DNA of 64,000 nt from the IMG/VR virus record IMGVR_UViG_3300020473_000015, one strand, 5' to 3'. The position numbers and the translations under genes were made by a program. Below the pieces are notes generated by a model. It saw nothing but the letters and a program-made list of their open reading frames with translations, was not told the origin of the DNA and ran no database searches. The DNA is from a virus. How positions within the stretch are numbered: the first letter of the stretch is position 1; each line of letters starts with the position of its first letter. Positions 15,651-44,101 of this stretch are shown here, piece after piece.

Positions 15651-15920
15651 ATGAAACTTACTAAATCACAATTAAAACAATTTATTAAAGAAGAATTACT
15701 TAACGAGATTGGAGAAGAAGGCCAATCGGGAGAGTGGGAGGATGAAGGCGAATTTAAAGCGGGAGATTTTGTTGAGGTAGAGATATATGATGATGGGTAT
15801 GAAAAGAATATAGAAAAACTTGAAAACCCAGCCGCATTTACGCCGACTCATGGAAGATACACATCTGAAAAATTCTTAGCTAAAATTGTACAAGTATCTA
15901 AACGAAAGTACGAGGATTAA
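15651..15920 (+). CDS. Leader class A protein (acidic, SH3-like core)
   Basis: Starts MKLTKSQLKQFIKEELLNE; FKAGDFVEV core. Confidence 0.8.
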   Translation: MKLTKSQLKQFIKEELLNEIGEEGQSGEWEDEGEFKAGDFVEVEIYDDGYEKNIEKLENPAAFTPTHGRYTSEKFLAKIVQVSKRKYED

Positions 15921-15922
15921 AT

Positions 15923-16468
15923 ATGAAACTTAAACAATCACAGTTACAAAAAATTATTAGAGAAGAATTTAAGGCAGTACTCAATGAAGCAGAATTCGAT
16001 GCAACAGACGAAATGAAAAAAGATTTCGATGAGGACTTAGACCATATGAGAGAGGCAATGCAAAACGTAGCACTTTCAGTAATTGATCAATACTCAGCTG
16101 ATTCAGAAAAATATGGCGAATTTACAAAAGAGGCAGCGCGGAAAGAAATAACCGAAGTTCTAGAAGCAACGCTAGTTAACTTTCTAGAAGACGCTTTAAC
16201 AATGTCTCCTGGCTTAGAAACCATTCTAGATCAAGAGTTTGATGAAGCTGATGATCCTGCACGTGCAGGCGTCATTAATGAATTTTTTGGTGGCAAATGG
16301 GATAAAAGTTGCCATTATACATTTGATGATGTAAAAGACGAATATTATGATTCTGGCGGTCAACGCGTTGGCGTATGGGTAATTAACGGACAGAAAAAAC
16401 ATTCATCTCAGATGACTGAAGCTGAAATAATGGATAATGAAAAAAGAATTCGTGGGGAATGGTGCTAG
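15923..16468 (+). CDS. Leader class A protein, acidic
   Basis: Starts MKLKQSQLQKIIREEFKAVLNE. Confidence 0.8.
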   Translation: MKLKQSQLQKIIREEFKAVLNEAEFDATDEMKKDFDEDLDHMREAMQNVALSVIDQYSADSEKYGEFTKEAARKEITEVLEATLVNFLEDALTMSPGLETILDQEFDEADDPARAGVINEFFGGKWDKSCHYTFDDVKDEYYDSGGQRVGVWVINGQKKHSSQMTEAEIMDNEKRIRGEWC

Positions 16469-16471
16469 CTA

Positions 16472-17725
16472 GTGCGTCTTTCTAAAACAAAACTTAAGCG
16501 AATCATTAAAGAAGAAATGCGAATTGCTATAGCATTGCATGAGAATGCTGTAGCATTGCATGAGAATGCTGATCTTATGCAAAACGCCACGCTGCTCAAT
16601 ATTAGAGATTTTGGTTATATTCCAGAAGATCCAAATTTTGATCAAAAGGCCGAAGCCGAACCCGCATTTGGGGATATTAAGCGGCATCTTGAAGCTGATG
16701 AAGGCGCAATTGCAATTGCAAAAAGTGGTAGCAAATACGTTTTTATTATGCTTGGCTTAAGCGAGCCGCATGGGCCCAATGAAGTGCGTAGTGTTGGCCA
16801 TGTCGATTCAAGATATACTTCAGCTGAAAAGGCGCTACAGATGTTTAAAGATCATGCGGAAAAATTTGTCGACGATGAGGTTGCAAAGAATGCTGTCATG
16901 AATACCACCTTAGAAGATCTAGATAATTTGCAAAATGAAGATATGCTAGTAGTAAAATCTAAGAAAAAAGTTTCCGATACACTTTCTTGGCTTCAAAGCC
17001 TCTCCGCGCAGCCAGTTGAAAAAAGTAGCTCTAAATCTGAAGATCGATATCATGATGAACCATACCATCATCAACCTGGATTGGTTGGTGGTGCAGCACG
17101 ACATCGAAAAAGAGTTTCTAAATATTATAAAGAAAGCAAGCTAACCAAATCTAATATTAAAGACTTAATCAAAGAAGAGCTTAGATCCGTCATGATTGAA
17201 GAGGGGCTGTGGGATAGTATTAAGAAACGTGCGAAGATAGCGTATAATGCGCCCGGAAGGCTAGCAAATAAAGCTGCCAATAAAATATATGATATGACTG
17301 CATCGAAAGACGTGCCTACCATGACGACTGGACCGGCAGACAAAGTTTCTAAAATGGAACAACCATGGGAATATGAAGAAGCTACACAAGATGAAAAAAC
17401 TAAATTTGATGTAGCCATGGCTATAGCTGGATTGTTAAGCCTAGGTCTTGGCGCTGCAGCTGCAGGTGGTGGCGCAGCGAAAAAGGCTGCAGGGCAAACA
17501 GCACTAAAACAATACCTAACGGATAAAGCTATCGATGCACCTGCAATTGCTGCTAGTACTTATGCTTCCTATCAACTAGCAATGCAAAAAGCTGGAAAAA
17601 AACCTGTTGGCAAGCAGCGCTTCGAAGCGGCCAAAGCGGCTTTAAAAAATATCGCTATAGAGGCAATGCCTGGAAATAAAGCAATTGGTATTGGTGCAAA
17701 AGCTAGCGCGACAGCTGCTGGTTAA
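16472..17725 (+). CDS. Leader class A protein with an internal second leader and Ala/Gly-rich hydrophobic C-terminal region
   Basis: MRLSKTKLKRIIKEE; internal SKLTKSNIKDLIKEEL; VAMAIAGLLSLGLGAAAAGGGAA. Confidence 0.8.
   Translation: MRLSKTKLKRIIKEEMRIAIALHENAVALHENADLMQNATLLNIRDFGYIPEDPNFDQKAEAEPAFGDIKRHLEADEGAIAIAKSGSKYVFIMLGLSEPHGPNEVRSVGHVDSRYTSAEKALQMFKDHAEKFVDDEVAKNAVMNTTLEDLDNLQNEDMLVVKSKKKVSDTLSWLQSLSAQPVEKSSSKSEDRYHDEPYHHQPGLVGGAARHRKRVSKYYKESKLTKSNIKDLIKEELRSVMIEEGLWDSIKKRAKIAYNAPGRLANKAANKIYDMTASKDVPTMTTGPADKVSKMEQPWEYEEATQDEKTKFDVAMAIAGLLSLGLGAAAAGGGAAKKAAGQTALKQYLTDKAIDAPAIAASTYASYQLAMQKAGKKPVGKQRFEAAKAALKNIAIEAMPGNKAIGIGAKASATAAG
16526..16567 (+). repeat. 21-bp tandem duplication (AIALHEN / AVALHEN)
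   Basis: gctatagcattgcatgagaat followed by gctgtagcattgcatgagaat. Confidence 0.9.
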
Positions 17726-17765
17726 CCTGAAAATAATAGTATTTATTAAGGAGAGGTATATACAA

Positions 17766-17978
17766 GTGAAACTAACTAATGTGAAACTTAAACAATTAAT
17801 CAAAGAAACCCTACAAGAAATGTATCTTACAAACACACCTAGTGGTGATAAAGATTTTCTACATAATGAAGATGGCTATGAAATAATAAACAATATTAAG
17901 GCGGCCATGGCAGATTATGATGAAAGCGATCCATGGGCTACTGTCGACGCTATTAAAGAATTACTTACATTTGAGTAA
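17766..17978 (+). CDS. Leader class A small protein
   Basis: GTG 17766 after AAGGAGAGG; MKLTNVKLKQLIKETLQE. Confidence 0.75.
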   Translation: MKLTNVKLKQLIKETLQEMYLTNTPSGDKDFLHNEDGYEIINNIKAAMADYDESDPWATVDAIKELLTFE

Positions 17979-18526
17979 GAGTGTCTTTTTCCATTATAAT
18001 AAGACCCTTTCGCAATATTCTTTGATGCCTCAAGCGGTCTTAAATTCTTTAAACTCCACGCTTCCCTAATTTTTGGATCATCGCCATCACTAATACCATA
18101 ATACGCCAAAGGTATAATATGATCAATATGCCAATACGTACCATAGTTATCCCAATTCATTTCTGGCGTAAATTGCGATTCTAGATGCTCCTGAAGCTGT
18201 CTAGGGTTGAAATCGAAGTACTTACTGCTTGACCGGTCTTTCTGTACACCCTGCGTGTTTAAAAACTCTTTTAATCTTTTCGTACAATTTTTTCGTATTT
18301 TGACATGTGGCAGTTTTCTTCTCCGTCGACGCTGCATTCGCCTGGAAAGTTTACCGGCTGGGGTTTTACGCCACTCTTGTTTTTGTGCATATTTGCAAGG
18401 TTTGCAGATAGCCCTAAAATATTTACAATAGCCGTTTCCGGATTTCCGTTTTTTTCGACGAAGTTCGAAATGTTCGGTAGTTTTCGGTAGTGTGGTGTTG
18501 CAACTAGTGCAAGTTTTTGTTTCCAT
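17915..18526 (-). CDS. Free-standing HNH homing endonuclease with N-terminal Zn ribbon
   Basis: CTSC...CKPC, WHIDHIIPL, NLRPLEASKNIAKG; opposite strand to its neighbours; ATG 18526 at +7 from its own -10. Confidence 0.85.
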   Translation of the reverse strand: METKTCTSCNTTLPKTTEHFELRRKKRKSGNGYCKYFRAICKPCKYAQKQEWRKTPAGKLSRRMQRRRRRKLPHVKIRKNCTKRLKEFLNTQGVQKDRSSSKYFDFNPRQLQEHLESQFTPEMNWDNYGTYWHIDHIIPLAYYGISDGDDPKIREAWSLKNLRPLEASKNIAKGSYYNGKRHSYSNVSNSLIASTVAHGSLSS

Positions 18527-18532
18527 AGATCT

Positions 18533-18561
18533 AGTATACATGAGTTATTTGCGTTTGTAAA
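18533..18561 (-). promoter_or_regulatory. Sigma70-type promoter of the HNH gene
   Basis: Minus strand TTTACA-N17-TATACT with TG extension. Confidence 0.7.
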
Positions 18562-18590
18562 GAATAAAGTGAAAAAAAATTTTGAATATT

Positions 18591-18598
18591 CTATTTAT
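18591..18598 (+). promoter_or_regulatory. Putative late-promoter motif CTATTTAT
   Basis: Upstream of SD GGAGG and ATG 18619. Confidence 0.45.
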
Positions 18599-18618
18599 TA
18601 TTGCTTCTGGAGGCCCAC

Positions 18619-18867
18619 ATGAGCTTAAACATAGCGAACCTTAAAAACATCATCAACGAGGAACTAGACCGCGCAACTAAAGACGTAAATTATACCGGCG
18701 ACATAGATGCCGTACAAGAGTGCATAACTGAAATACAAAATTTCTTAGCCGAATCTAGTGACCTATATATTAATTCATCTTTAGAGTTGAAAAAAAATAT
18801 TTTACTTGATTTACTTTCCTTATTACAGCTTATTGAGAACTATTCTAACAAATGGTCTGACATGTAG
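18619..18867 (+). CDS. Leader class A small protein
   Basis: MSLNIANLKNIINEELD after GGAGG. Confidence 0.7.
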   Translation: MSLNIANLKNIINEELDRATKDVNYTGDIDAVQECITEIQNFLAESSDLYINSSLELKKNILLDLLSLLQLIENYSNKWSDM

Positions 18868-18903
18868 GAAAAAAAATTTTTGGTTTTTGGCCATACTTAT
18901 TAT

Positions 18904-19167
18904 ATGGCCCTCTCGAAAAAAACTAGAATCAAGCAAGAAAAGGTCGTACTGAACAAAAACCAACCTAACAATATTGAAGTCGCCATTGGAGAGGTCCATA
19001 GAATCGAAAATAAAGTATATTACGTCATTAGTTTTGGTGGTGACAAAGAAATTATAATATCAGGACCAGATGAATATGAAAAATTCATAGATTTAATTAT
19101 TAATCTAGACTGGGATCCTGAAGATACTTGGATCAGACCTAAACAAAAGAAGCGACAGTTTGATTAA
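18904..19167 (+). CDS. Hypothetical protein
   Basis: ATG 18904 in frame with ORF 18880..19167. Confidence 0.6.
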   Translation: MALSKKTRIKQEKVVLNKNQPNNIEVAIGEVHRIENKVYYVISFGGDKEIIISGPDEYEKFIDLIINLDWDPEDTWIRPKQKKRQFD

Positions 19168-19605
19168 TTACTTTTTGTGCTTTTTGCCCTTCTTTCCTCT
19201 TCTTTTCTTTTTATTATTATAATAGTGATTGTTTATAACTCTTCTATTTTTAATAACAGTCCTATTTCTTACAATCGGCTTAAGCCTCGGATGTCTTTTT
19301 CTTACAATTGGTCTTTTACGATATATACGATGTTTTTTATGACGATATACTTTTCCTCGATATCTGATTCTATTAATATGTCGACGTCGTATGGTGTGAT
19401 ATCTTACCTCTCTGACTGATGGCCTGAGAGATACTCGATAGCTTGGAATTTGTACTAAATAACCATCCCAGCAATCATCGATGTGTGAAGTATATACAAC
19501 TTCGTGTGGTGTAACCAACCCATCGCCATAAAACAATTGAGGCTGACATTCAAACGTACCAAGCGTTAAACCGCTTGATAATATAAATATTAAACATGTT
19601 CCCAT
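19168..19605 (-). CDS. Secreted/membrane protein with Arg/His/Lys-rich C-terminus
   Basis: Hydrophobic N-terminus, aaaggag SD on the minus strand, highly basic tail. Confidence 0.6.
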   Translation of the reverse strand: MGTCLIFILSSGLTLGTFECQPQLFYGDGLVTPHEVVYTSHIDDCWDGYLVQIPSYRVSLRPSVREVRYHTIRRRHINRIRYRGKVYRHKKHRIYRKRPIVRKRHPRLKPIVRNRTVIKNRRVINNHYYNNKKKRRGKKGKKHKK

Positions 19606-19688
19606 GATTTTCTCCTTTATGTTACTACTTTAAAATGCAAACTACGTGCCAAGTTTTAAAATATACATAATTATGATATAATTATATC

Positions 19689-19883
19689 ATGAAGAATGTG
19701 ATAAGTCTACAAGAAAGTCGAATAAAACGAGATATAAAAAACGCTTATACAAAACTGAAAGAGGTTCGAACTTTAATATCCTATGGAAAGCATGAAATGG
19801 TTGATGAAGCGTATGAATTGGAAAATAGAATATTAGATTTGGAAGAGCAATTATTAGATTTAGTAGAATCGGACTCTTTTTAA
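19689..19883 (+). CDS. Small coiled-coil protein
   Basis: ORF track. Confidence 0.6.
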   Translation: MKNVISLQESRIKRDIKNAYTKLKEVRTLISYGKHEMVDEAYELENRILDLEEQLLDLVESDSF

Positions 19884-19962
19884 ATTTTTATTAAAAATTA
19901 GTGTTTATTATGTTAATATGATCTCAGGCCTTAGTATTATAACGTTATAAGGAGGTGTACAT

Positions 19963-20425: not shown

Positions 20426-20483
20426 AAAATTAATTAATTTTAATACGTTAACGTTAAGTGTGGTGCGCTGGTCTATATATAAT

Positions 20484-21366: not shown

Positions 21367-21987
21367 ATGAAACTACTATTTGAAAATTGGCGAGAATTCT
21401 TAAAAGAAGAAAATGAAATTGTGAAGACAAATAACGCGGTGGTTATTTTTTCTGATTGGGCGAAGGGTCATATTGAAAAGGGACACAAAGAGCCGGGAAA
21501 GGGTTCAATATTTGCAGACTTTGATCTTTCTTTGGTTAATTCTGCTCTAGAACAAATTGAAATAAATCCAAACAAAGCAGTATATACCATTAGTGTTCCA
21601 AGTGTCGGTTATAACCTAGTTCTTCCAGACAACGAGGCATCACAATTGGAAGGTGCTCAAAAAACAGAAGTAGAAAAGGAAGAAAGACAGGGACCAATCA
21701 CAGTTAATGCATATACGACTTCTCAACCACTAGAGAGCTTTAAAACGGATGAATTATCTGTTGTTATTAGACCAACAAGTGAATTACAATATGTTCCAGA
21801 GGATCTTCAACAAGATCCAGCGGTTACACAGGCGCTTGATCAAGGAAATTTATATTCCGTTCTTTCTGCATGGCCAGGAAGAGGAGATGTACCACCGGCC
21901 TCTCAATGGGGCGATGATTGGGCTGTTATTATTCCAGATCGAGCTATAGAGAGCGATGGGGAAGTTGTCGATGAAACTCCTATTTGA
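21367..21987 (+). CDS. Leader class B protein, unknown cargo
   Basis: Starts MKLLFENWREFLKEE. Confidence 0.8.
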   Translation: MKLLFENWREFLKEENEIVKTNNAVVIFSDWAKGHIEKGHKEPGKGSIFADFDLSLVNSALEQIEINPNKAVYTISVPSVGYNLVLPDNEASQLEGAQKTEVEKEERQGPITVNAYTTSQPLESFKTDELSVVIRPTSELQYVPEDLQQDPAVTQALDQGNLYSVLSAWPGRGDVPPASQWGDDWAVIIPDRAIESDGEVVDETPI

Positions 21988-22405
21988 AAATTGGCGAGAA
22001 TATTTGAAAGAAACTATAGAGAATCTTCTATGCCCTGCAGCAACTCAGGATCTGGAGCTTAATACTAGAAACAGAGACGCTGCAGTTCAAGCAGAGCACA
22101 TTCAGTATGGACCTCTAAACGTTGATGAGCCTGGAGACTATTGGCAAAAAATTGCCGAGGCATGGAACACCTCAGAAAAGGCTGCGCAAAAGTCTTTGTG
22201 TGGTAATTGTGTCGCTTTTGATATTTCTCCTCGCATGAAAGATTGTATGCCCGGAGAAACCTCAGACAAAGATGGGGAACTTGGATATTGTTGGATGCAC
22301 CACTTTAAGTGTCATTCTGCTAGATCATGCAGAACGTGGGCCAAAGGTGGTCCGATCACTGAAGATATTAAATCTGCAGAATGGCAGGAAAAAAATGAAC
22401 GATGA
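21971..22405 (+). CDS. Leader class B protein with HiPIP-like Cys domain
   Basis: MKLLFENWREYLKE; CGNCVAF...GYCWMHHFKCHSARSCRTW. Confidence 0.75.
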   Translation: MKLLFENWREYLKETIENLLCPAATQDLELNTRNRDAAVQAEHIQYGPLNVDEPGDYWQKIAEAWNTSEKAAQKSLCGNCVAFDISPRMKDCMPGETSDKDGELGYCWMHHFKCHSARSCRTWAKGGPITEDIKSAEWQEKNER

Positions 22406-23955: not shown

Positions 23956-24900
23956 ATGAAATTATTATTTGAAAATTGGAGGAAATACTTGAAAGAGGAA
24001 GAAATTCTTTACGAGAGGATTAATTTACTCTCTAGTAATAAAAGATTTGTTAACGATACCTTAGAAGAAATTGCATCAGAAGATCCTAGACGCCAATTTC
24101 CACTTTCAGACGAAGAACTAGAAAAAATAAAAAGTGTTGCGGGCCTTGATGGAGATCCAGATTTTTTAGGATCCGGCTCAAGAGGATCTGCATGGCAATT
24201 TGGTGATAAGGTTTTAAAAATCACAGCGGACAGTTCTGAAGCGCGTGCTGCTAATTTATTAATTGACAAAGAGCATCCAAATGTATATAAAATATTTTTA
24301 GTTGTGCAAAGAGACCCAAAGCACCTTGAAACGTTAAGGCATGCGCCATATATTGTTGTTTATGAATTATTAGATTATCCAAACAACGCCATGGTAGATA
24401 CTACAAATAATTTATATCACAAGCTTAAAACAAATAATATTTTTTATAATTGGGATGAAAATTATTTAGAGAAAGCAAAAGGTTCGATGAGTGCTTTGTT
24501 GCAATATATTAACAAACATCCAGAATCTTTAGAACGCGAAGAGAAAAAAGGATCCGACATAAGACCTACTCTTGAAAATTTAGCTGCTCAGATTGGATTA
24601 GATAAACTTGAGACAAAATTATTAATCACTTTGTGGATTTTTAGCCGCGGTGCATACAACGATACTTTAGATAGCCCACTTAAAGCGTTGGAACATGTAA
24701 GAGAAATATTTGGAAGCGTTAAAACTAATTATTTAAACCAATTAGCTTTAGGTTTGACCTGGTTAAATAAGAATGGTATTAAATTTCCTGATTTAAAAAC
24801 TTCCAATGTAATGGAAAAAGATGGTCAAATAGCTATCATTGACATTGGTTATTCACAGGTAAGAGAGAAGAAAAATATTCCAACGATTGGGGAACTATAA
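23956..24900 (+). CDS. Leader class B protein kinase-like enzyme
   Basis: MKLLFENWRKYLKEEE; LGSGSRG, VLKIT, DLKTSN, IIDIG. Confidence 0.8.
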   Translation: MKLLFENWRKYLKEEEILYERINLLSSNKRFVNDTLEEIASEDPRRQFPLSDEELEKIKSVAGLDGDPDFLGSGSRGSAWQFGDKVLKITADSSEARAANLLIDKEHPNVYKIFLVVQRDPKHLETLRHAPYIVVYELLDYPNNAMVDTTNNLYHKLKTNNIFYNWDENYLEKAKGSMSALLQYINKHPESLEREEKKGSDIRPTLENLAAQIGLDKLETKLLITLWIFSRGAYNDTLDSPLKALEHVREIFGSVKTNYLNQLALGLTWLNKNGIKFPDLKTSNVMEKDGQIAIIDIGYSQVREKKNIPTIGEL

Positions 24901-25449
24901 ATGAAATTATTATTTGAAAATTGGCGACAGTATTTAACTGAAAATCAAGAAGAGAACAAGGCAACAAAATTTCCAGCAATTGTCACCTTCGATTTTGATG
25001 ACACTTTGTCATTATCTCACTGGGGTGAAGAAGAAGATGATTGGGTCTACGACGGGCCTCATCAAGAAATGATGGATATACTAATGGATTATCACAGGAA
25101 AGGCTCTAAAATATTTATTGTTACCTCAAGACACAAAGAACTTCAAGACGAGGAGGGGAAATGGTTTAAACATCTTCCAAACACCAATCCCCCTAGAAAG
25201 TACTTTGAAGAATTCCAAATGCCAGTTTGGAAATTTGTTAAAAAACATGGATTGCCAATTCAAGATGTCATATTTACTAACGGAGAGGTAAAAGCAAAAG
25301 CTGAAGATGGCTTAATTGAAATAGGTTCGGATGTACATCATGATGATGATCCAGAGGAAATAAGAGCAGCTGAAGAGGCTGGAATTAAAGCTATTGTCTC
25401 CGATCCATATGGAGATTATAAAAGACTTGAAAAGGGTTTTGTAAAATGA
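24901..25449 (+). CDS. Leader class B HAD-superfamily phosphatase
   Basis: MKLLFENWRQYLTE; DFDDTL, VTSR, K, HHDDD motifs. Confidence 0.85.
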   Translation: MKLLFENWRQYLTENQEENKATKFPAIVTFDFDDTLSLSHWGEEEDDWVYDGPHQEMMDILMDYHRKGSKIFIVTSRHKELQDEEGKWFKHLPNTNPPRKYFEEFQMPVWKFVKKHGLPIQDVIFTNGEVKAKAEDGLIEIGSDVHHDDDPEEIRAAEEAGIKAIVSDPYGDYKRLEKGFVK

Positions 25450-26249
25450 AATGGAAAGATTATTTAGAGGAAAATATTGATCCGGATGACGTAGATATTA
25501 AAAATGTCGCGGTCAAAGATAATTTAGATCCTGTAATATGGGATGATCGATTAAATTTAAAGAATTATCTTGCGGAACATTTATATAAAATAGCCAAAGA
25601 TTTTTTTAAAACATTGGATTTAGATTGGAACTTAGTTGAAGATGTAACTCTAACTGGATCTCTAGCAAACTACAATTGGTCTAAATATTCTGATGTGGAT
25701 TTACATTTGATCGTTGATTATGCAGAAGTAGATGAAAATGAAAAGCTTGTTAAAGATTTTTTCAGAAACGCTAGCGCAATGTGGAATCGTACTCATAAAA
25801 TAACAGTGAAGGGTCATGATGTGGAATTGTATGTCCAGGACTCAAAAGAGCCACACCATTCAACAGGAGTGTATTCTATAAAGTATGATAGATGGAATAA
25901 CACTCCAACAAAATATGATCCACAAATAGATAAAGAATCATTAAAGAAGAAGTCTGCAAAATGGATGAACGATATTGATGAGGTATATGAACTGCTTGCA
26001 GTAAAAGATTATAAAACCGCAAATGAACAATCTGAGCGTCTTATGAAAAAATTAAAAAAATATAGACAAGGTGGATTAGAAAAAGGTGGAGAGCATTCAA
26101 TTGAAAATTTAGTTTTTAAAGTTCTAAGACGTAATGACTATTTACAGAGACTCTCTAATTTAAGAATTGTATCGTATGATAATATGATGACTGTCAATGG
26201 AGGAATAGGAAGTGAAATTATCAAAATCAGTCTTAATGAAACTAATTAA
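25446..26249 (+). CDS. Pol-beta superfamily nucleotidyltransferase with shortened class B leader
   Basis: MKWKDYLEE; GSLANYNWSKYSDVDLHL, DVELYVQD, ENLVFKVLRR. Confidence 0.8.
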   Translation: MKWKDYLEENIDPDDVDIKNVAVKDNLDPVIWDDRLNLKNYLAEHLYKIAKDFFKTLDLDWNLVEDVTLTGSLANYNWSKYSDVDLHLIVDYAEVDENEKLVKDFFRNASAMWNRTHKITVKGHDVELYVQDSKEPHHSTGVYSIKYDRWNNTPTKYDPQIDKESLKKKSAKWMNDIDEVYELLAVKDYKTANEQSERLMKKLKKYRQGGLEKGGEHSIENLVFKVLRRNDYLQRLSNLRIVSYDNMMTVNGGIGSEIIKISLNETN

Positions 26250-26277
26250 AGAAGAGCTTGCAACTCTTTATGAATGA
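26212..26277 (+). CDS. Leader-only class A peptide (21 aa); the frame continues after TGA to 26358
   Basis: GTG 26212 after GGAGGA; MKLSKSVLMKLIKEELATLYE* then in-frame PENPLGSPEESVVMIAEDEDEDEEEV*. Confidence 0.6.
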   Translation: MKLSKSVLMKLIKEELATLYE

Positions 26278-26360
26278 CCTGAAAATCCTTTGGGGTCTCC
26301 AGAGGAAAGTGTTGTTATGATTGCCGAAGATGAAGACGAAGACGAAGAAGAGGTATAACT

Positions 26361-26615
26361 ATGTGTTTAGTTTGTATTGAATATGAAAAGGGCAAATTAA
26401 AAATTAATGAGGCCCTCAGAAACATAGAAGAAATGAAAGAAGTTGTTGGTCAAGAACATTATGATGAAACTATGGCATTTCTCACTCAAGAATTGTTAAA
26501 AGAACAATGGAGTGAATATGATTTCGGTCGTGACATCGAAGATAGTCTCTTTGAATATGATTTTCATAGTGGCGATGATGACGACCCATGGGAAGAAACA
26601 GGGTTCGGGGACTAA
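26361..26615 (+). CDS. Acidic small protein (MCLVC start)
   Basis: GAGG SD; ORF track. Confidence 0.7.
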   Translation: MCLVCIEYEKGKLKINEALRNIEEMKEVVGQEHYDETMAFLTQELLKEQWSEYDFGRDIEDSLFEYDFHSGDDDDPWEETGFGD

Positions 26616-33854: not shown

Positions 33855-35552
33855 ATGAAGCATTTATTTGAGAATTGGCGCCAATATGTTAACGAGGATG
33901 TTGTAGATTTAGCCTCTCGCCGCAAAAAATCCGAAAAAGAATTTGTTTTTACAGACGCAGAACTTAATAGCCTTAATGACGCAATTGCTAGAGTTATTGA
34001 TGGCGCTAAAAAAGTTCTTGGCGCTGATGGTGAAACTCCATTCTTAAGTCCAGATTCATTAGAAAAAATTGAACTTGCACAACCAATGAGAATGGTCGCA
34101 GAGCAAACAGATGAAGAGCTTGGAATAACCCCATTTCAATCTTCACAAGCCTCTCCAGAACAAATGGCCCTTAGAAAACAATATTATGGACCAGAAGGAG
34201 AATTGACCAAAGGTGGACCTAAAGCAGTCAGAGGCTTAGAAAAAGGTTTAGGTCAAATGTCAGCAGAGGAATTTGAAGAAGCGGGATATGTTATTAAAGT
34301 TCCTCAAAGTGTTTTAAATGATTTTGGACAATTGGTTGAAAGCACAAAAGAAACCGCAGGTTTGTTTGAAGAAGCTAGAGATTGGTATCACAACATACGT
34401 GGATTGCTCGATAGAGAGACAGAGAACGACCGTGACAGCGCTTTATTAGGTCTTTTGATTGCTACCTACTCTCCACGCGCTAAGTTCGCTCTAAACCTCG
34501 CTGAAGCCGTCTTTATGTACAAAGCTGTACAAAGAGATGCACAGAATAATCCAGAAGGCTTAAGACAATATCTAGAAACATTTCCTGGATCTGAAAAAAG
34601 AGAACCAGGATCTTTTAGGGGTTTTACGGGTGCGCACAAAGTACCAAATTTCGCCCTTAATCTAGTTGCACCAAACTTAGCTGGTGAAAAAAGCGAGTTT
34701 GGAGATATTGTTTATAATGATCTCTATGAGTGGAATTCTACAATTGATACTTGGATGATAGACGCTTTTTATCCTTCGCTAAGAAAAGCATCAACAGCAA
34801 AAGAATGGGAAGGCATAAAAGGTAAATTAATGTCTAATGTAGTTTCTTATCGATATATGGCTAGATTAGTTGCAAAAGAAGCAAAAAATTTAAATTTATT
34901 GCCACATGAACTTCAAGCTTTAATTTGGGTTGCATCTCAAATTAGACAAACCGGTGAAGCAGGTTTAGGAGTGACTACACAATTTGCTTTTGATCAAATT
35001 AGAGAAGCAATAACGAACATTGCTGAGATTAATAATGATCTGCGCGCCCTTAAAGATCTAGAAGAGAAAGATTGGCTAGGTACAATTATTAGTACAATTG
35101 ATGTTGATGGTTTTGAAGAAGCAGCGAAATATCTTTTAGGAATTAAAGATGAGAAAGGGAAAATAACTACTCCCGGAATTAGGAGTATTACTGCCAGTGG
35201 AAAGAAAGGCTCAATGTTTGACTATTTCCCTGCCCCAGAGAAAGTGGAAAAACCAAAAGGGCCCAAAAAGGCTAAAAAGGCTAGCGCTCCGAAAGAAAAA
35301 GTAATGAAGCCATATGAAAATCCTGAATATGGGGATTTAAATGCGCACTATGTAATGAATAGTGTTATTCAGATGCCAACTGGTAAATTTAATAACCTAT
35401 ATGACTCCATAACTCTTTATTTGGATCCTGAATTTTCTACAGATAAAGCTGTAGAGCATATTTTAGGAAGGTTTGATCCCGAAGCGAAAGCTTCGAAAGA
35501 TTATTTTAAAGAAAATAAAATAAGAGTATTTATCCGTAAACGTTTATTATAG
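33855..35552 (+). CDS. Leader class B protein with putative DNA-glycosylase-like helical domain
   Basis: MKHLFENWRQYVNE; DWY...ATYSPR...HKVPNF...IDTWM...ELQALIW pattern. Confidence 0.7.
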   Translation: MKHLFENWRQYVNEDVVDLASRRKKSEKEFVFTDAELNSLNDAIARVIDGAKKVLGADGETPFLSPDSLEKIELAQPMRMVAEQTDEELGITPFQSSQASPEQMALRKQYYGPEGELTKGGPKAVRGLEKGLGQMSAEEFEEAGYVIKVPQSVLNDFGQLVESTKETAGLFEEARDWYHNIRGLLDRETENDRDSALLGLLIATYSPRAKFALNLAEAVFMYKAVQRDAQNNPEGLRQYLETFPGSEKREPGSFRGFTGAHKVPNFALNLVAPNLAGEKSEFGDIVYNDLYEWNSTIDTWMIDAFYPSLRKASTAKEWEGIKGKLMSNVVSYRYMARLVAKEAKNLNLLPHELQALIWVASQIRQTGEAGLGVTTQFAFDQIREAITNIAEINNDLRALKDLEEKDWLGTIISTIDVDGFEEAAKYLLGIKDEKGKITTPGIRSITASGKKGSMFDYFPAPEKVEKPKGPKKAKKASAPKEKVMKPYENPEYGDLNAHYVMNSVIQMPTGKFNNLYDSITLYLDPEFSTDKAVEHILGRFDPEAKASKDYFKENKIRVFIRKRLL

Positions 35553-36602: not shown

Positions 36603-39305
36603 ATGAATTACGTAATAAATAATAATACTTCTTACGACCTTCAAAAATTAGAACAACTAGCAAGAGAATTTCTCCCCTTCGCTCAAAAAAGAATGGGGTT
36701 TAATAGACCTCCTGTAATTAATTTTGATTCGGATGAAGAAAACTCTTTAAACCCTCTAGGCAAAACTGGATATTATAGCCCTTCAGAAATGGCTATTACT
36801 ATAATGGTCGACAACCGACATATTAAAGATATTTTAAGATCTTTATCTCATGAATTAGTACACCACAATCAAAACTGTCGTGGAGACTTTAATAGAGAAT
36901 TTTCTACTAATCCTGGTTATGCTCAAAATAACGAATTTTTAAGAGGAATGGAAGACGAGGCTTACAGAGAGGGAAACTTTTGTTTGCGAGATTGGGAAGA
37001 TGGTATTAAATTGTCTGAAACAAAGAAGAATCAGCTTAATGAGACTATTTATAAACGTACCTTCATAAAAGGAGAGGTTAGCATGTCAACAAAACAATGG
37101 AAAGACAAAGAACTAAACAGCTTATTAATGGAAAAATGGGGATACAAACTCCCAGAAGCAGAAGAAAAATTAGAAGAAGATCTTCAACCTGCAATGAATC
37201 TTAGAGATTATAGTACTGCAGAAAAAGTTTTAGGCGAAAACGACGAAGAAGATTCCGACGAAGAAGTGACAGTAGAAGAAAGCACTAACCCTCTAAGCGT
37301 TGAAAATCGCACAAAAAACAATAAACCCGTCAAAGAATCAAAAAAAAAAAGTCTAAATAAAACAACGCTCTCCTATAGTGAAAAAATCCTACAAGAAAAA
37401 TTAAACAATAGAGATCCATTCTTTCTCTTTAACAATTGGAAATCCAATGAACCAAGTCTTTTAAAGGAATCTGGTGCTGTTGGAAAAGTTGCTAGCGAGG
37501 CTTTCGAGTGGGCCATGAAAAAGTCTGGAGGGGTTTCTGATATTGTTCCAGGTCTTGGGAAGGTTGGGAGAACCCAGTTGACGAAAGTGGACAATGCGCG
37601 AATTGATAAAATTGTTGGAGAAGGATTTGACGAGGCCCTAAAAAAAGGCAATTTAGATAAGATCAGAAATATGTGGGATAGCACTAAAAGACAATTGACT
37701 GATGATGCTCTAAAAAGTGGGGCTGGTAAAGAATTGGTAGATGACATTGTGGAGGCCTTGTCAAAAGATGCCAATGAAGTTTTTAAGAAAGCAGTAAAAA
37801 CCGACGCATTTAAAGAGATAATGGCAAAAAGTATTGCCCAAAGGGCCGATGATATCGCCACTAACAAAGAACTGTTTGAGGTGGCCGCAAACAAAATTAA
37901 AAAAAGCAATATTAAGCTCTCAAACTTAGATGAGGCAGATAGAATAGCAGCAATAAGAGGAAAACTGGGTGATGACGCGGCCGATGCCCTTGGGGACGAT
38001 GGCTTAAAGGCACTTGCAAAATCTGCAGATGACGTTGCTGATGCTGCCGATGATGCTGCTAAGGCTGCCGATGATGCTGCTAAGGCTGCCGATGATGCTG
38101 CAGAAGAAGTTGGAGGGGCCGCTGGAAAAACAGATGAGATTGCAGATGCAGGGAAGGCGGCCCAAAAAGCCGCCGATGATATGATGGATCGCGCAATGAA
38201 GTCAGCGGACGAGGTTCTTAAAAAGGGTAGAGTAAGAGCAAGATTAGATGAAAAAATTAAGGGTTGGGCAAAAGATACAGGAACCAGTAAAAAGAATTTA
38301 CGTTGGAACACTGAAGAATTTTTAAAAGGAAATCCAGGTCTTCAAAGAATTAAAGAACTTAATAAGTTTACAGATGATCAGTGGGATGAATTCATTGAAC
38401 AATTAGCCAAAAAGGAAACAAGAGGAGTCATTACTCGGTTCAGACATATTCTTAGCCAATGTAAGGGGCTTGCGAGAACTCCAGCATGCCTTACCGCTGC
38501 CAGCGTCTTGGGGGTGTTTGGTGTAGGTGCTACTGATACGTTAACGAGTGGTGAGGGAGATATTGGTGGAGGCTCTGGTGGAGGTTCTGGTGGAGGTTCT
38601 GGTGGAGGTTCTGGTGGAGGTTCTGGTGGAGGTTCTGGTGGAGGCGTTGCACCGACAGAAAAACAAAAACTAAATGACCTTTGGAGCAGGTGCCAACAAT
38701 CTAGTGGATGGGACTCAGAAGCTTGTCGAATATATCTTAGAGCTAAAAGTAATTTTGACAATAATATTGAAATAAGGGAACCATGGCCAAGTAGTGGATC
38801 TGATCGTCGGGCTGGTCGACCAACGCCGCGTGGCAAATTACCAAAAGCTGGAGATGCAGTACCGGGAATTCCCGGTGAAGTCTGGCCACATAAAAATGAG
38901 TGGGTCGGCTGGAGTTCGATGAAAGTTATAAGAAGACTCAGAGAACTTGGATTTGAATATGATAGTAGTAAAACTGCTGGTGGTTGGTGGAGAGCTTTAC
39001 CTCGTATGCACCCTGCAAGAGTGGCATATAGAACGTTCTGGAAAAAGGGCGCGGGGGCAAGAAGAAGAAAGAAGAGAAGAGACCCTCAAGAGATTGCAGC
39101 AGAGATGGACTCCAGACCTGATGCATATTGGGCCTCCGGGAAGGCAAAACACATTGTACCAAGCGAGCTAAACCCCCGAGAAAGGGCGTTAGTTCAAAAC
39201 TATACAGGAAAAACTTTCCCTGCAGGACAATCTGTAAGAAGAAGTGACTGGGCTGAAGAATTGAAAGCTGCAAAAGCAGAACATAAGAGATTTAACCCCA
39301 AATAA
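36603..39305 (+). CDS. Large protein: N-terminal zincin-like domain (HELVH), Ala/Asp-rich helical body, TM-like segment, GGGS linker, GGWWR domain
   Basis: ORF 36597..39305; LSHELVHHNQ; AADDAAK repeats; CLTAASVLGVFGVG; (GGGS)6. Confidence 0.8.
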   Translation: MNYVINNNTSYDLQKLEQLAREFLPFAQKRMGFNRPPVINFDSDEENSLNPLGKTGYYSPSEMAITIMVDNRHIKDILRSLSHELVHHNQNCRGDFNREFSTNPGYAQNNEFLRGMEDEAYREGNFCLRDWEDGIKLSETKKNQLNETIYKRTFIKGEVSMSTKQWKDKELNSLLMEKWGYKLPEAEEKLEEDLQPAMNLRDYSTAEKVLGENDEEDSDEEVTVEESTNPLSVENRTKNNKPVKESKKKSLNKTTLSYSEKILQEKLNNRDPFFLFNNWKSNEPSLLKESGAVGKVASEAFEWAMKKSGGVSDIVPGLGKVGRTQLTKVDNARIDKIVGEGFDEALKKGNLDKIRNMWDSTKRQLTDDALKSGAGKELVDDIVEALSKDANEVFKKAVKTDAFKEIMAKSIAQRADDIATNKELFEVAANKIKKSNIKLSNLDEADRIAAIRGKLGDDAADALGDDGLKALAKSADDVADAADDAAKAADDAAKAADDAAEEVGGAAGKTDEIADAGKAAQKAADDMMDRAMKSADEVLKKGRVRARLDEKIKGWAKDTGTSKKNLRWNTEEFLKGNPGLQRIKELNKFTDDQWDEFIEQLAKKETRGVITRFRHILSQCKGLARTPACLTAASVLGVFGVGATDTLTSGEGDIGGGSGGGSGGGSGGGSGGGSGGGSGGGVAPTEKQKLNDLWSRCQQSSGWDSEACRIYLRAKSNFDNNIEIREPWPSSGSDRRAGRPTPRGKLPKAGDAVPGIPGEVWPHKNEWVGWSSMKVIRRLRELGFEYDSSKTAGGWWRALPRMHPARVAYRTFWKKGAGARRRKKRRDPQEIAAEMDSRPDAYWASGKAKHIVPSELNPRERALVQNYTGKTFPAGQSVRRSDWAEELKAAKAEHKRFNPK
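37043..37052 (+). promoter_or_regulatory. Late-promoter motif inside the ORF, followed by SD and in-frame ATG 37083
   Basis: GACTATTTAT, AAAGGAGAGG at 37068-37077, ATG 37083. Confidence 0.55.
38043..38101 (+). repeat. 21-bp coding tandem repeat (AADDAAK) x about 3
   Basis: gctgccgatgatgctgctaag repeated. Confidence 0.9.
38565..38645 (+). repeat. 12-bp coding tandem repeat (GGGS)6
   Basis: One ggtggaggctct plus five ggtggaggttct, then ggtggaggc. Confidence 0.95.
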
Positions 39306-39317: not shown

Positions 39318-40541
39318 ATGAAAAATTCCAAAGATCAACTAACGGAACAAGAGATAAAAAAAATAATCAAAGAAGTTCTTTTAGAAAATCCTGAATTGTT
39401 AGAAGAGTGGGGCATGCCGTCTTGGAAGGATGTTAAGCGCACCTTTAAAAGAGCACAAAATGCGCCGCGATATTGGGCTGGAAGAGCCGCCAATAAAGTC
39501 TATGACTTGACTCAGGGCCCTGCGCCCGACTCAGTATTACAAAGAGGTGGTGGAAAGGTAGATATACCAGCGAGCAAAAAAGAACAAGAAGCTCGAAGAA
39601 AATATAAACTTGCGGACAAAAAATGCGCACAGACGGGCGATCCGAAAGATTGCGCAGAAGCGAAAAAGTTGTTAAAGAAAGCACACGCCATCGCTCAAGG
39701 CGATACGCGTAAAGGCGGGTTCGAGAGAACAGAATGGCACGGCAATTGGAAAGATATAGACATTGCAGGTGGAAAGGGGATAGGATGGCGCACTAGTGGT
39801 GGGTTTACCTCAAAGGACAGATATAAGGACGAGACAGAAGACACGCTACAGACCGCTAAAGCTGCAACTGCAATTGCTGCACTTGGAGGCGCAGGGATGG
39901 TTGCTAAACTTGCCCCGGGCATGCTAGCAAAAGGGCCAACCGTTGGAAAGATAATGTCTATTAATCCCATGCAACATGTATTTAGAAAAATGGGTATGAA
40001 TGAAAAATTTGCATCTATTGCAACACTTTTGTTTGATGCTGGTATTGGATTTTCTGAACAGTGGTTTTGCGGATTGAACATTAAAGGAGTTAGAATATAT
40101 GACGATATTTTAAAACATGTAGATCCAGTGCACTATCTTGCCATAATTCCATTGCAGAGGGCATGGCCTGGAGGCAACACAGGGCAATTATTCAGTAGAG
40201 ATATAAAATTTGGCGGGAATGTACCAATTGACTGGACTAATGAAAAGCAAGTGAATTCATTATATGACCATATCAATCAATCAATGATGAATGATGAAGA
40301 TCGAGAAGCTGCTAGAAACCTCAGAGACGATATTACACAGAAAGTTGCACAGTTAAATCGCCTTGCACAAGAAGAAAATATGTGCCCAAAGGCTTATGAA
40401 AAATTGATGCAAATTAAAGGCGCGCAAGAAGAATTAGCAAAAATTATTGGAAAGAATATAGAAAAAGAGACAGAAAAAAATCAGAAAGATTTAGATAAAA
40501 GAAAAAATATTCTGAAAAGACTGAAGGGCAATAACCAATAA
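39318..40541 (+). CDS. Leader class A variant protein with Ala/Gly-rich hydrophobic segments
   Basis: EIKKIIKEVLLENPELLEE; AATAIAALGGAGMVAKLA. Confidence 0.75.
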   Translation: MKNSKDQLTEQEIKKIIKEVLLENPELLEEWGMPSWKDVKRTFKRAQNAPRYWAGRAANKVYDLTQGPAPDSVLQRGGGKVDIPASKKEQEARRKYKLADKKCAQTGDPKDCAEAKKLLKKAHAIAQGDTRKGGFERTEWHGNWKDIDIAGGKGIGWRTSGGFTSKDRYKDETEDTLQTAKAATAIAALGGAGMVAKLAPGMLAKGPTVGKIMSINPMQHVFRKMGMNEKFASIATLLFDAGIGFSEQWFCGLNIKGVRIYDDILKHVDPVHYLAIIPLQRAWPGGNTGQLFSRDIKFGGNVPIDWTNEKQVNSLYDHINQSMMNDEDREAARNLRDDITQKVAQLNRLAQEENMCPKAYEKLMQIKGAQEELAKIIGKNIEKETEKNQKDLDKRKNILKRLKGNNQ

Positions 40542-40550
40542 GAGGATAAA

Positions 40551-43334
40551 ATGGGCACATCAGGACACATGCAACACCCTTTTGACATTCCAAGTGTCAA
40601 AACAGGACAAGACTTAATAAATTATTTCGAGAGAATTGTAGAACATCTTTCTGCAAATCCCGGAAGTGTTAAATTCGATGGCATTAATGTAAGCTTTAAA
40701 TTAGTTGATGATGAATCCACTCCAACTGGAAAAGACTTCAGAATGGATCGTGGAACTTCCGCACCAGAATCAGTTATAGGAATGACGGCAGCAGATGCAT
40801 ATAAAAAGTGGCCTGAAGGTCATGGAATGCCCCCAGCAATAGATGAACTCTTAAAAATATTTAATGAAGCGCTGCCACTAATTGAGCCAGAATTAAAAGC
40901 TTTAGGAATGTGGGATGATCCTACAAAATATTTCAATACCGAATATATGAAGAAGGGCAGAACAAACGTTGTTGAATACGGTGAAAAAATATTAGCTCTT
41001 CATGGTGTAAATCAGTTTTATGAAAAGAAAGCACAAGCCCATAGAATTAAAAAAGGCATTGGAATGGATCGCCCAGGTTTAGAAAGACCAATTGATCCAG
41101 AAACTGGAAAGCCAACAAAACATGGAAGCACAGAAGTTCCTTATGATAGCGGAGTTTTACAATCTATTATTGAAAAAGTAAAACCAATTGCAGAACAACA
41201 TGAAGTTAGTTTAGTTGGAGATGTATCAACTGAGATATCTGCAGAAGTTGATTTTTCTGAAACGTTAAGTAAGCCATTTACGATAAATATGACAGACACA
41301 GAAAGCGAAACTCACTCTTTAGGCGAGTGGCTTTCTTCTGCTGTTAATCCTTTTGATGCTAAAGTACAAAAGCGTGATGGTAAACAAGCATGGGCAATAA
41401 GTAAAGAGATTTATTTTGCTGTTTTAAATGGTGTTCCCCTCATGGAAATGTTGGAGACTCCAGAAGACGTTAAAACGGCCATTAACGGCGCTCTTTTCAA
41501 TCATGCGACCCATGAGTTGGGTATGGACGTTAAACGCGCTTCAACAAGCTCTAAAGGCGGTTTAGAGGGTCATGAAGGTATTGTGATTAGAGGCATCGAT
41601 GATAGACCTGTGAAAGTCACTGGAGATTTTATTGTAAAAGGCGCTGGTGGAGCAATAAAGGATAAAATTAAAGCCTCCAAAGAAAAAGAGACTCTTGCTG
41701 AAATTGCAGATGAGCCGATAGATTTAGAATTTGAGATAGGAGATAATTTCGAAGAAGAGCCTGTTGAAAGAAAAATGGTCGCAATTTATCCTGGTAGATT
41801 TCAGCCTATGGGAAGACATCATGCTGAAGTCTATAAAGCTTTGCTAAATGATGAAAGATTTGATGATGTTTTCATATCGACGTCAGATAAAGTTGAGATG
41901 CCGAAGTCTCCATTCAATTTTAAAGAAAAGCAAGAAATTGCTGCTGGGCATGATATAGACCCATCTAAAATTGTACAAACTAAAAATCCCTACAATGCAG
42001 TTGAAATAACTAACAGTCTCGATCCTGAAACTGTTGTTGTTTATTTTGTGGGATGTAAAGATATGGATGCTGATCCAAACGTTTGTGATGGTACAAAACC
42101 AAGATTCCCTAGAGAAAGCTTGGGAGGAATGACTAAAAAAGGCACACCAAGATATTTTAGAGCTTTTGAGGATGAAGAAGATTTTAAAGGAGTGAAAGAT
42201 CATGCTTATATAGCTGTTGCTCCTCACATAGAAATTGAAATTCCAGAGCTTGGTGAGATGTCTGGTACGACAATAAGACAAGCGCTTCAAACAGCAGAGC
42301 CTGAAAAATTTGAAAGCATTATGGGATTCTATGATCCTGTTGTATATGATATGATTAAATCAAAGTTAAACTCTGAGCAAGAAGAATTACAGGAGGTTTC
42401 CCAGTTGCCTCTGGGTATCTTTCTTGGGTTAATTGAAGAAGTATTAAATGAAGTTGATCCAGTTGCGATGTATGGAGCGAATATTGCTAATGTTCCGGAA
42501 GTAGCATATAAATCTTATGGCACCAAGCAAGAACTAAATGAGATATACAGTGAAGATTATTCAGAAAAAGAATCTAGAGAAAATTTATTTGATGAACAAT
42601 ATCAAGAAGCTGTTGATGAAAGTGAATATAAACAAAAATATTATGATTTATTTATATCACAGCAAGATGCTAAGAAAATGTTGGATACATTAAATAATTC
42701 CTTCCCCGATTGGAAAGATCAAGAAGTATTACCTAGTGAATTTGACGATATCGAAGAAAAACTACATAAAGATGATTTGTGGAATGTTATCAAAGACACA
42801 AAATTATCAGATGGGGATATAACTTATAAAGAAATTTTGAATAAAAATGCTTTTGCCAACGCAACTAGGGAAAATGCACGATGGATTCAAGGCCCTAGAG
42901 AAATGCTACAAGACGAAGAAAAGATATATGGTGGGCGTGATCGAAATGCTCAAACTTATCCTTCTGAAAAAAGGGCTGTCTGGGCATGGAGCGTCGAAGG
43001 AAGAGGAAATTATTTAGGCTTTTCTCCAAAAGATATGGTAAAGGCCTCCAAAAGATACATTTATCCATATGCCAAATATTATATAAAATATTTTATGGAA
43101 GAATTATTTGAAGTTGTTGATGACACTATCAAAAATATGGATGCATATGCTAGCTTCCTATCTGATATATGGCATAAAATGAGTGATACCCCAATTGAGC
43201 AAAAAGAAGATTTAGAGGAAATATCTGCCATGGGAGCAGGAGCAGTAGAAGGTGGTGGCAGAACAGATGAACAAGAGGGGTTAATTAGAGAGGTTGAAGA
43301 CTATTTATATAAGCTATTAGGAGTCACAGAATGA
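40551..43334 (+). CDS. Large protein containing a cytidyltransferase-like (HIGH-type nucleotidyltransferase) domain
   Basis: AIYPGRFQPMGRHH, SPFNFKEK, MSGTTIR; N-terminal HMQHPFD/KFDG/EGIVIR region. Confidence 0.75.
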   Translation: MGTSGHMQHPFDIPSVKTGQDLINYFERIVEHLSANPGSVKFDGINVSFKLVDDESTPTGKDFRMDRGTSAPESVIGMTAADAYKKWPEGHGMPPAIDELLKIFNEALPLIEPELKALGMWDDPTKYFNTEYMKKGRTNVVEYGEKILALHGVNQFYEKKAQAHRIKKGIGMDRPGLERPIDPETGKPTKHGSTEVPYDSGVLQSIIEKVKPIAEQHEVSLVGDVSTEISAEVDFSETLSKPFTINMTDTESETHSLGEWLSSAVNPFDAKVQKRDGKQAWAISKEIYFAVLNGVPLMEMLETPEDVKTAINGALFNHATHELGMDVKRASTSSKGGLEGHEGIVIRGIDDRPVKVTGDFIVKGAGGAIKDKIKASKEKETLAEIADEPIDLEFEIGDNFEEEPVERKMVAIYPGRFQPMGRHHAEVYKALLNDERFDDVFISTSDKVEMPKSPFNFKEKQEIAAGHDIDPSKIVQTKNPYNAVEITNSLDPETVVVYFVGCKDMDADPNVCDGTKPRFPRESLGGMTKKGTPRYFRAFEDEEDFKGVKDHAYIAVAPHIEIEIPELGEMSGTTIRQALQTAEPEKFESIMGFYDPVVYDMIKSKLNSEQEELQEVSQLPLGIFLGLIEEVLNEVDPVAMYGANIANVPEVAYKSYGTKQELNEIYSEDYSEKESRENLFDEQYQEAVDESEYKQKYYDLFISQQDAKKMLDTLNNSFPDWKDQEVLPSEFDDIEEKLHKDDLWNVIKDTKLSDGDITYKEILNKNAFANATRENARWIQGPREMLQDEEKIYGGRDRNAQTYPSEKRAVWAWSVEGRGNYLGFSPKDMVKASKRYIYPYAKYYIKYFMEELFEVVDDTIKNMDAYASFLSDIWHKMSDTPIEQKEDLEEISAMGAGAVEGGGRTDEQEGLIREVEDYLYKLLGVTE
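43299..43308 (+). promoter_or_regulatory. Putative late-promoter motif GACTATTTAT
   Basis: Inside the 3' end of the upstream ORF, before AGGAG and ATG 43331. Confidence 0.5.
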
Positions 43335-44101
43335 ACCCACAAGAACAACAGTTAAGATTATTAATCCGTGAAGGCATGCGTATTGTTAAAAATAAAAGAG
43401 ATGCGCAGCTTTTAGAAGAGCAAAGATTGAGAAAAATTATTAGAGGCCTTATTTCTGAAGTATCTAAGAAAACTGCAGTTGCTGATAAAGTTGTTCATAA
43501 AAATACTGGTATAAATAAATTAGATGCACTTCTTAAACGCATCATTACTCAAATTGAAGATGCATACACTAATTTGTCTTCTAGTGAAGAAGAGAGAAAA
43601 TCATTTAGATACCACTTCTTAGTTAATTTTAAAAATCTGTTAGCTCCGGTCGATGCAAATAGAGATGCACCTAATAGAGAAAAGATGGCACTAGCAGAAC
43701 AAGATTTTAAAGTAGGTGTTGAACAGGATGATGTGACTAGCGAACCAGATCCAGATAAATTTCTACCCTCAAGACCTCAAGATATTGAAGCAGCAAAGGC
43801 TGAAGAGGAGGAGGAAGGAAAAACGTTTGAAAAATTAGACTCTTCCGACCCTTATGTTAGACAAGGCGCCGAAGCAGCAGAGACCGCTCTAAACGATGTA
43901 GAGACTCAAATTGTTAATTCATACGAGGGACTTATCGTACCAGAGGACGCAGCTGCATTCAAAGATTGGGGCTTAACTAATCTTAAATTGTACTTTGATA
44001 TGTTTGAAGATGAAATGACTAGTGATGTTGGAGAGGAACCAGAAAGTCCTGATTATCCTGCTGGAGATGATACTTTAAAAGAAGTAATATATGATATATA
44101 A
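43331..44101 (+). CDS. Acidic protein with duplicated class A-like leader
   Basis: QLRLLIREGM...EEQRLRKIIRGLISE. Confidence 0.75.
   Translation: MNPQEQQLRLLIREGMRIVKNKRDAQLLEEQRLRKIIRGLISEVSKKTAVADKVVHKNTGINKLDALLKRIITQIEDAYTNLSSSEEERKSFRYHFLVNFKNLLAPVDANRDAPNREKMALAEQDFKVGVEQDDVTSEPDPDKFLPSRPQDIEAAKAEEEEEGKTFEKLDSSDPYVRQGAEAAETALNDVETQIVNSYEGLIVPEDAAAFKDWGLTNLKLYFDMFEDEMTSDVGEEPESPDYPAGDDTLKEVIYDI

Follow-up and report, generated by a model that had tools for sequence, protein, structure and literature searches.

The 64,000-nucleotide viral DNA of IMG/VR record IMGVR_UViG_3300020473_000015 (here called the window, meaning the whole stretch) carries, between positions 15,651 and 44,101, a series of otherwise unrelated genes whose products open with one of two short peptide leaders, class A and class B. 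Our analysis indicates that these leaders are probably capsid-targeting propeptides of the kind known from bacteriophage T4, which are trimmed from the proteins (cargoes) that carry them. A first-pass annotation made from the sequence alone had proposed this reading, and it is supported by the T4-type head genes of related phages, a residue spacing shared with the T4 capsid targeting sequence (CTS), a protease site where tag and cargo meet, the swapping of tags between cargoes, a late-type promoter motif and the absence of the leaders from cellular genomes; two of its elements, a pair of tags and an enzyme toolkit, are revised below. The described class A or class B N-termini were found at all 20 starts that had been listed. 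The leaders at 25446 and 43331 are present as a short T4-type form and a double-helix variant, respectively, and both fall under our profile threshold. The leader at 26212 is also present, but the gene is not a normal one, with a TGA after 21 codons that is probably recoded. Four class A genes use a GTG start codon. The tagged genes are as follows (lengths in amino acids, aa):

15651–15920 (+): class A tagged, unknown cargo, 89 aa
15923–16468 (+): class A tagged, acidic, 181 aa, unknown cargo
16472–17725 (+): class A tagged (GTG), 417 aa, one hydrophobic segment; second class A motif at about 17138–17182
17766–17978 (+): class A tagged (GTG), 70 aa
18619–18867 (+): class A variant, 82 aa
21367–21987 (+): class B tagged, 206 aa, unknown cargo
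21971–22405 (+): class B tagged Cys-rich protein, 144 aa
22402–22656 (+): class B variant, 84 aa
22653–23294 (+): class B tagged, 213 aa, phrog_3170
23956–24900 (+): class B tagged, kinase-like, 314 aa (Pkinase E 9e-6, below cut-off)
24901–25449 (+): class B tagged, HAD-like phosphatase, 182 aa (weak hits)
25446–26249 (+): nucleotidyltransferase, 267 aa, short T4-CTS-like tag
26212–26358 (+): class A tagged small gene (GTG), in-frame TGA at 26275–26277, 48 codons if read through
26615–28720 (+): class B tagged kinase-like/GNAT-like/Nudix fusion, 701 aa
29011–30117 (+): class A tagged basic protein, 368 aa
30120–30734 (+): class A tagged (GTG), 204 aa
30737–31081 (+): class B tagged, 114 aa, conserved in relatives
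33855–35552 (+): class B tagged DUF7178 protein, 565 aa, weak HhH glycosylase-like fold
37083–39305 (+): probable internal start with promoter motif (37044), ribosome-binding site and B-like N-terminus, inside the 36603 open reading frame (ORF)
39318–40541 (+): class A variant, 407 aa
43331–44101 (+): conserved protein with two A-like N-terminal helices, 256 aa

The second class A motif within the 16472 gene and the B-like start at 37083 are additional to those previously described. Using a leader profile built mostly from relatives, matches were obtained for 17 of the 39 plus-strand genes at 15.5–44.2 kb, compared with 0 of 27 at 1–15.5 kb and 0 of 24 at 44.2–64 kb, while within-protein shuffles gave a mean of 0.017 matches (maximum 2 in 300). 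The statement that neither leader occurs on early or glycan genes is consistent with this distribution, as none of the 51 genes outside 15.5–44.2 kb matched. Untagged neighbours in the same operons or stretch include lipoproteins, membrane proteins and adenylosuccinate synthetase. We also confirmed that conservation lies at the amino-acid level with varied codons: the proportion of synonymous differences (pS) reached 0.72/0.73, against a proportion of non-synonymous differences (pN) of 0.35 for class A and 0.20 for class B. The 30 nucleotides upstream of tagged starts are unrelated (33% identity) and, given such high synonymous divergence, it is the peptide and not the DNA that is conserved. 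These observations bear on the idea of an expression or gene-capture cassette, in which the shared start would serve translation initiation or recombination and the peptide itself would be incidental. Tagged genes do stand in tandem arrays, with many starts overlapping the preceding stop, but the saturation of synonymous sites while amino acids are kept, the lack of shared upstream DNA and the occurrence of the motifs internally and at C-termini render a cassette highly improbable.

Profiles of both leaders, built and run over the window and related metagenomic phages as had been suggested, identified 617 distinct tagged proteins among approximately 270 fetched IMG/VR loci. Searched as exact patterns, class B was found in 71 IMG/VR stretches and class A in at least 120, and neither pattern was found in 185,579 GTDB cellular genomes; equal occurrence of the leaders on cellular proteins, which the first-pass annotation had named as counting against its own proposal, was thus not seen for these patterns. 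For hits outside the search patterns, 281 of 306 (class A) and 199 of 211 (class B) were located at a start codon, start codons making up 5% of codons. Past the leader, 596 cargoes formed 364 families, 290 of them with a single member, in keeping with the description of the cargoes as unrelated and with the T4-type arrangement of a short conserved N-terminal peptide on unrelated proteins. Whole genomes possess about 12–30 tagged genes, and cargo turnover is fast, with 63 of 77 families confined to one of six genomes. A search of solved structures returned no match to either tag.

Relatives of the window genome encode a T4-type head. Marine metagenome contigs, the longest of 180 kb, contain letter-identical copies of the 33855 protein, and one relative, G001 (190.6 kb, rated complete), shares the gene order of the window and a 70% identical 43331 protein. 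G001 encodes a gp23 capsid together with a gp21-type S77 protease, and a gp21-type protease was present in all 11 long relatives searched (160–205 kb; G001 and 10 of 10 further tagged genomes). The ORF at 36603–39305, a single 900-aa frame in the window, corresponds to a pair of separate genes in G001 and in another strain; its N-terminal part resembles a zinc-peptidase-type domain. BLAST searches of the 43331 protein and of the tags against deposited phages returned no match, and the capsid of the clade is less than 60% identical to that of any deposited phage, its best cultured match being Flavobacterium phage immuto. This cultured phage (immuto_2-6A, NC_055915; host Flavobacterium sp. LMO8), located by way of the capsid match and not of a tag match, carries class A tags on gp095, gp094 and gp080. 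Neither an A nor a B tag was detected in the parts of Mel-JY01 (50 kb) and RM378 (35 kb) that were searched.

In T4, gp21 cuts after L/I-x-E, and within the signal of internal protein IPIII residues 4 and 7 serve targeting while residues 8 and 10 serve processing (PMC9026906). Class B reproduces this pattern (aromatic residues at 4 and 7, aliphatic at 8, Glu at 10) as W8, Y/F11, L12 and E14, that is, with the T4 CTS spacing shifted by four residues or one turn later, and a G001 nucleotidyltransferase displays the exact T4 register. Class A lacks the pattern, having no aromatic pair, and the A and B profiles do not align to each other; since the two are interchangeable on the same cargo, class A may nonetheless work like class B. 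With respect to processing, an L/I-x-E site occurs at the peptide end as in T4. Class A contains I-x-E at position 14 and a second L/I/V-x-E at positions 17–27 in 192 of 260 families (74%), compared with 15% of control windows, and because this second site lies outside the search profile the test is not circular. For class B the corresponding figures are 89% and 9%, a difference that is partly built in, as the site position lay inside the profile. Conserved L-x-E sites are also found at the expected propeptide ends of the clade's capsid, scaffold and protease. Were the leaders instead docking tags for another late structure or factor, such as a membrane, an assembly site, a phage chaperonin or a modifying enzyme, rather than for the capsid interior, their amphipathic character would be suitable, as amphipathic helices bind many things (hydrophobic moments of the leaders are 0.38 and 0.56), and G001 does possess a GroEL-like gene, read by eye. 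Docking of this kind, which we regard as improbable, leaves the junction L-x-E, the T4 spacing and the interchange with T4-like tags unexplained, and no enzyme was seen to be consistently linked to the tagged genes.

A connection between class A and head assembly was provided by a conserved 147-aa gene directly after gp21, which has an N-terminal class-A-related helix. This gene was the best class A match of 175 untagged G001 proteins (hhalign probability 80%), and its N-terminus was modelled as a helix with a predicted local distance difference test score (pLDDT) of about 90. Comparison of the leaders with head proteins, another proposed check, was otherwise negative: a resemblance of class B to the capsid propeptide or the scaffold, appealing by eye, was not supported (capsid rank 31 and scaffold rank 32 of 185), and neither was class A as a scaffold mimic. 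The helix beside gp21 raises the alternative that the leaders are head-core assembly modules without injection, acting as self- or co-associating helices on filler or size determinants, with most of the cargo degraded or retained; the T4 prohead core proteins gp67 and gp68 offer a comparison. The proteins that class A precedes are short and mostly acidic, with a median of 120 aa against 210 aa for class B, and a weak match to the ScsC oligomerisation helix was obtained for the 39318 variant (E 9e-4); both agree with such modules. Class B cargo, however, includes enzymes with recognisable domains, and the fast turnover of cargo families fits an arms race better. We therefore consider core modules an unlikely explanation, although one partly compatible with capsid targeting.

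Comparison of homologous cargoes revealed that the tags are exchanged. Five direct A/B swaps were identified, with homology beginning just past L-x-E. Among relatives, the Cys-rich cargo of the 21971 gene (2,311 homologue clusters) carries at least five tags, namely B, A, an alternating Lys/Ile beta-type tag, the Bacteroidota-phage tag that the Flavobacterium phage also shows and a T4-like tag. The 33855 family bears a second, C-terminal tag after an x-x-E site, which is of the beta type in the window and A-like in relatives; in a predicted model of the 33855 protein both termini have a pLDDT below 50, with a confident core. The notion of only two tags is thus superseded by at least five tag types, some at C-termini. 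The scaffold's conserved C-terminal motif R-M-x-x-L-A-G-I also recurs at the N-termini of other proteins in G001, locus L208 and immuto (loci concerned: L020:8442-9716, G001 116070-117110 and L298:11675), and may possibly represent a further tag copied from the scaffold. T4-CTS-like peptides also start many genes in a 642-kb phage (L299; LR756502).

Cargo identities were only partly as first named. Kinase, nucleotidyltransferase and Nudix assignments are supported by Pfam, the HAD assignment is weak, and GNAT and glycosylase are leads only; a HiPIP-like cargo found no support in family searches. Of the membrane-inserting proteins proposed, the 16472 product has a clearly hydrophobic segment and no other tagged gene does. 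The 93 B-tagged families from relatives include a tRNA nucleotidyltransferase, polynucleotide kinase, exonuclease, deoxyribonucleotidase, guanylate kinase and DnaJ domain, while the 73 larger A-tagged families yielded ten Pfam families with one protein each. For most cargo no family was matched, and small acidic proteins make up the greater part of the class A cargo; a toolkit of enzymes is therefore an overstatement and describes no more than part of class B fairly. Part of the class A cargo, given its size and acidity, may be core filler rather than effector. PADLOC returned generic kinase and Nudix hits only. Foldseek gave no match with the 33855 model, and a wider structure search gave a Z of 7.3 to an 8-oxoguanine glycosylase, a score that unrelated helical proteins also reach.

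Upstream of tagged genes the commonest 8-mer was ACTATTTA. This motif class precedes 79 of 607 tagged genes, compared with 2.3 in shuffled sequences, and in G001 it was associated with 7 of 22 tagged and 7 of 44 structural genes, but with 0 of 23 early and 0 of 29 glycan genes. We read it as a late promoter, from which late timing would follow. Copies in the window are:

15509–15517 (+): late-promoter-like motif heading the first tagged cluster
20682, 28979, 33842, 36589, 37044 and 43300: further copies

A second enriched word, ATGAATGGATTAGC, stands before about 28 tagged genes of the IMG/VR loci and not before window genes, and is probably the end of a common upstream gene.

The 26212 gene constitutes a separate case, in which the TGA directly follows L-x-E, 21 codons in, and the frame then stays open for 26 acidic codons. 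The TGA-Pro at codon 22/23 is kept in seven sequences (the window and six relatives). In a homologue the reading frame crosses two UGAs of this kind before entering a conserved domain, so that coding sequence lies on either side of a conserved in-frame UGA. Recoding of the UGA was preferred over reading the gene as a 21-residue bare tag. Database entries showing Trp at these positions reflect TGA called as W (TGA in 3 of 3 contigs checked). Downstream lies a hairpin resembling a selenocysteine insertion sequence (SECIS), which in the bacterial model is an in-ORF hairpin after the UGA (PMC13188914). The features looked for were a G at loop position 1–2, a location 16–37 nucleotides past the UGA and a minimum free energy of -7.5 or lower, and the window hairpin (-11.9 kcal/mol) has all of them. 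In 18 of 21 candidate sites, which were partly picked by protein context, the hairpin G-T falls at +18 to +20, and the stems vary yet stay paired. Sites in class A genes at which a conserved in-frame TGA comes with such a hairpin are:

26286–26306 (+): SECIS-like hairpin of the window, GU in apical loop at 26294–26298
L093:8171, 8279; L079:10367; L086:11013; L097:8883; L354:364, 532: TGA/SECIS-like sites in relatives
L126:1620; L041:8295; L161:4821; L048:112: further TGA/SECIS-like sites in relatives

Of the 617 tagged genes, 245 use TGA as an ordinary stop, which in most cases overlaps the start of the following gene. In 14 tagged genes the terminal TGA stands before a Pro codon, and most of these have a SECIS-like hairpin; recoding may accordingly be common in the clade. 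Like bacterial selenoprotein genes (PMC13188914), the 26212 gene combines an in-frame UGA with a hairpin 16–20 nucleotides downstream that has G-U in a small loop and varied, paired stems; unlike them, it is a phage gene, its UGA follows a predicted protease site, and no Cys orthologue was found for this position. For the second UGA of the family, a single distant alignment shows Cys and a single paralogue has Gly. ARAGORN reported no phage selenocysteine tRNA in the window, G001 or relative G005, and our literature search, which most subscription papers lay beyond, found no description of phage selenoproteins. Selenocysteine nevertheless appears the likeliest reading of the 26212 UGA, and one that we moderately favour.

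Taken together, and by analogy with T4, we infer a course of events consisting of core binding, cleavage, retention with the DNA, ejection and counter-defence. Tagged proteins would be made late in infection from the late-type promoters, and the amphipathic N-terminal helix would bind the scaffolding core of the assembling prohead. After shell closure, the gp21-type S77 protease would cut past the L/I/V-x-E observed at the tag-cargo junction, and freed cargo would remain with the DNA, some of it being ejected into the next host. Injected kinases, nucleotidyltransferases, Nudix and tRNA-repair-type enzymes could then serve in counter-defence or takeover. Some of the small cargo, acidic or basic, might simply fill the core. 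Any gene gaining a tag would be loaded, which would explain the fast turnover of the set between relatives. Several observations weigh against this interpretation. The window genome's own head genes lie beyond the 64-kb window and are deduced from relatives; class A does not resemble the T4 CTS in sequence; the L/I-x-E motif is weak, and the class B figure for it carries the built-in component described above; the motifs are sometimes internal or C-terminal in relatives; the beta-type tag often lacks a protease site; and 12–30 cargo types per head, some of 500–900 aa, are far above the four of T4.

For T-even phages both the principle and its use to discover internal proteins through their signal have been described before (PMC12373910, PMC9026906). 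T4 carries the CTS on IPI, IPII and IPIII, with Alt as a further case, and gp21 takes it off (Mullaney and Black 1996, as covered by the review PMC9026906). T-even phages have at least ten internal proteins, and all three of T4 block specific restriction systems (PMC12373910). The system described here resembles that of T4 in its short conserved N-terminus on unrelated proteins, the aromatic-x-x-aromatic-aliphatic-x-E of class B, the junction L/I-x-E and the presence of gp21, gp23 and portal homologues, and the double-ended 33855 protein recalls T4 Alt, which is processed at both ends (PMC5694885). It differs in having several interchangeable tags, of which class A is dissimilar, as well as 12–30 tagged genes per genome, large multi-domain enzyme cargo, internal and C-terminal tags, and an origin in an uncultured marine clade. 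The ejection proteins of phiKZ and SPN3US (PMC5694885) likewise comprise many inner-head proteins with cleavage after Glu, several sites and conserved N-termini on diverged proteins, although their propeptides are mostly over 100 aa with S/A-x-E sites, in contrast to short portable tags accompanied by a T4-type head module. For P1 DarB (PMC9024508), too, an N-terminal peptide suffices for a large protein to be packed into the head, but the Dar proteins share no common consensus and no likeness to the A/B tags was found. A literature search, with most subscription papers outside its reach, found no description of these tags; as far as searched, the novelty lies in these families of tags, in the fact that they are interchanged, in their placement at either end of a protein and in the scale. 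The system is real, probably ordinary in principle and unusual in extent.

A number of other loci were noted in the window and its relatives. An HNH-like endonuclease gene (17915–18541, minus strand, read by eye) is inserted in the first tagged cluster, and 31138–33270 encodes a lipoprotein, conserved in G001, that combines Cys-rich MopE-type repeats with a vWA-like C-terminus. The early region contains an array of small genes (2617–13908) with their own repeated N-terminus, M-[KQ]-V-G-D-L-V (KOW/SH3-like), and a MoxR-like AAA ATPase with a vWA/metallopeptidase partner (3999–6408). A CglF-like gliding-motility protein (658–903; E 6e-9, below cut-off) has a late-type promoter motif upstream and hints that the host is perhaps a member of the Myxococcota or Bdellovibrionota. 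ARAGORN predicted a transfer-messenger RNA gene at 44611–44991, whose tag peptide is identical in G005, and a ribosomal-protein-S21-like gene lies within the G001 head module (L020:12525-12758), as is likewise annotated in Mel-JY01.

A broader and more tentative possibility, which we think rather less probable than not, is that a large group of marine T4-type phages uses a multi-tag address code, in which at least five interchangeable tags at either protein end dock on different prohead parts, class A having been copied from a core protein N-terminus, and deliver 12–30 rapidly replaced injected proteins per genome, including selenoproteins whose selenocysteine would become the new N-terminus after cleavage. 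If true, hundreds of families of injected effectors could be read off from the tags. Proteins that enter the cell together with the phage DNA are active ahead of any phage gene expression. If the tags work as proposed, a simple profile would list hundreds of candidate injected counter-defence proteins of an abundant uncultured clade (364 families from approximately 270 loci), and the tag swaps would provide natural experiments on the binding partner of capsid-targeting signals, including that of T4. The class A tags of the cultured phage immuto_2-6A make the idea directly and cheaply testable.

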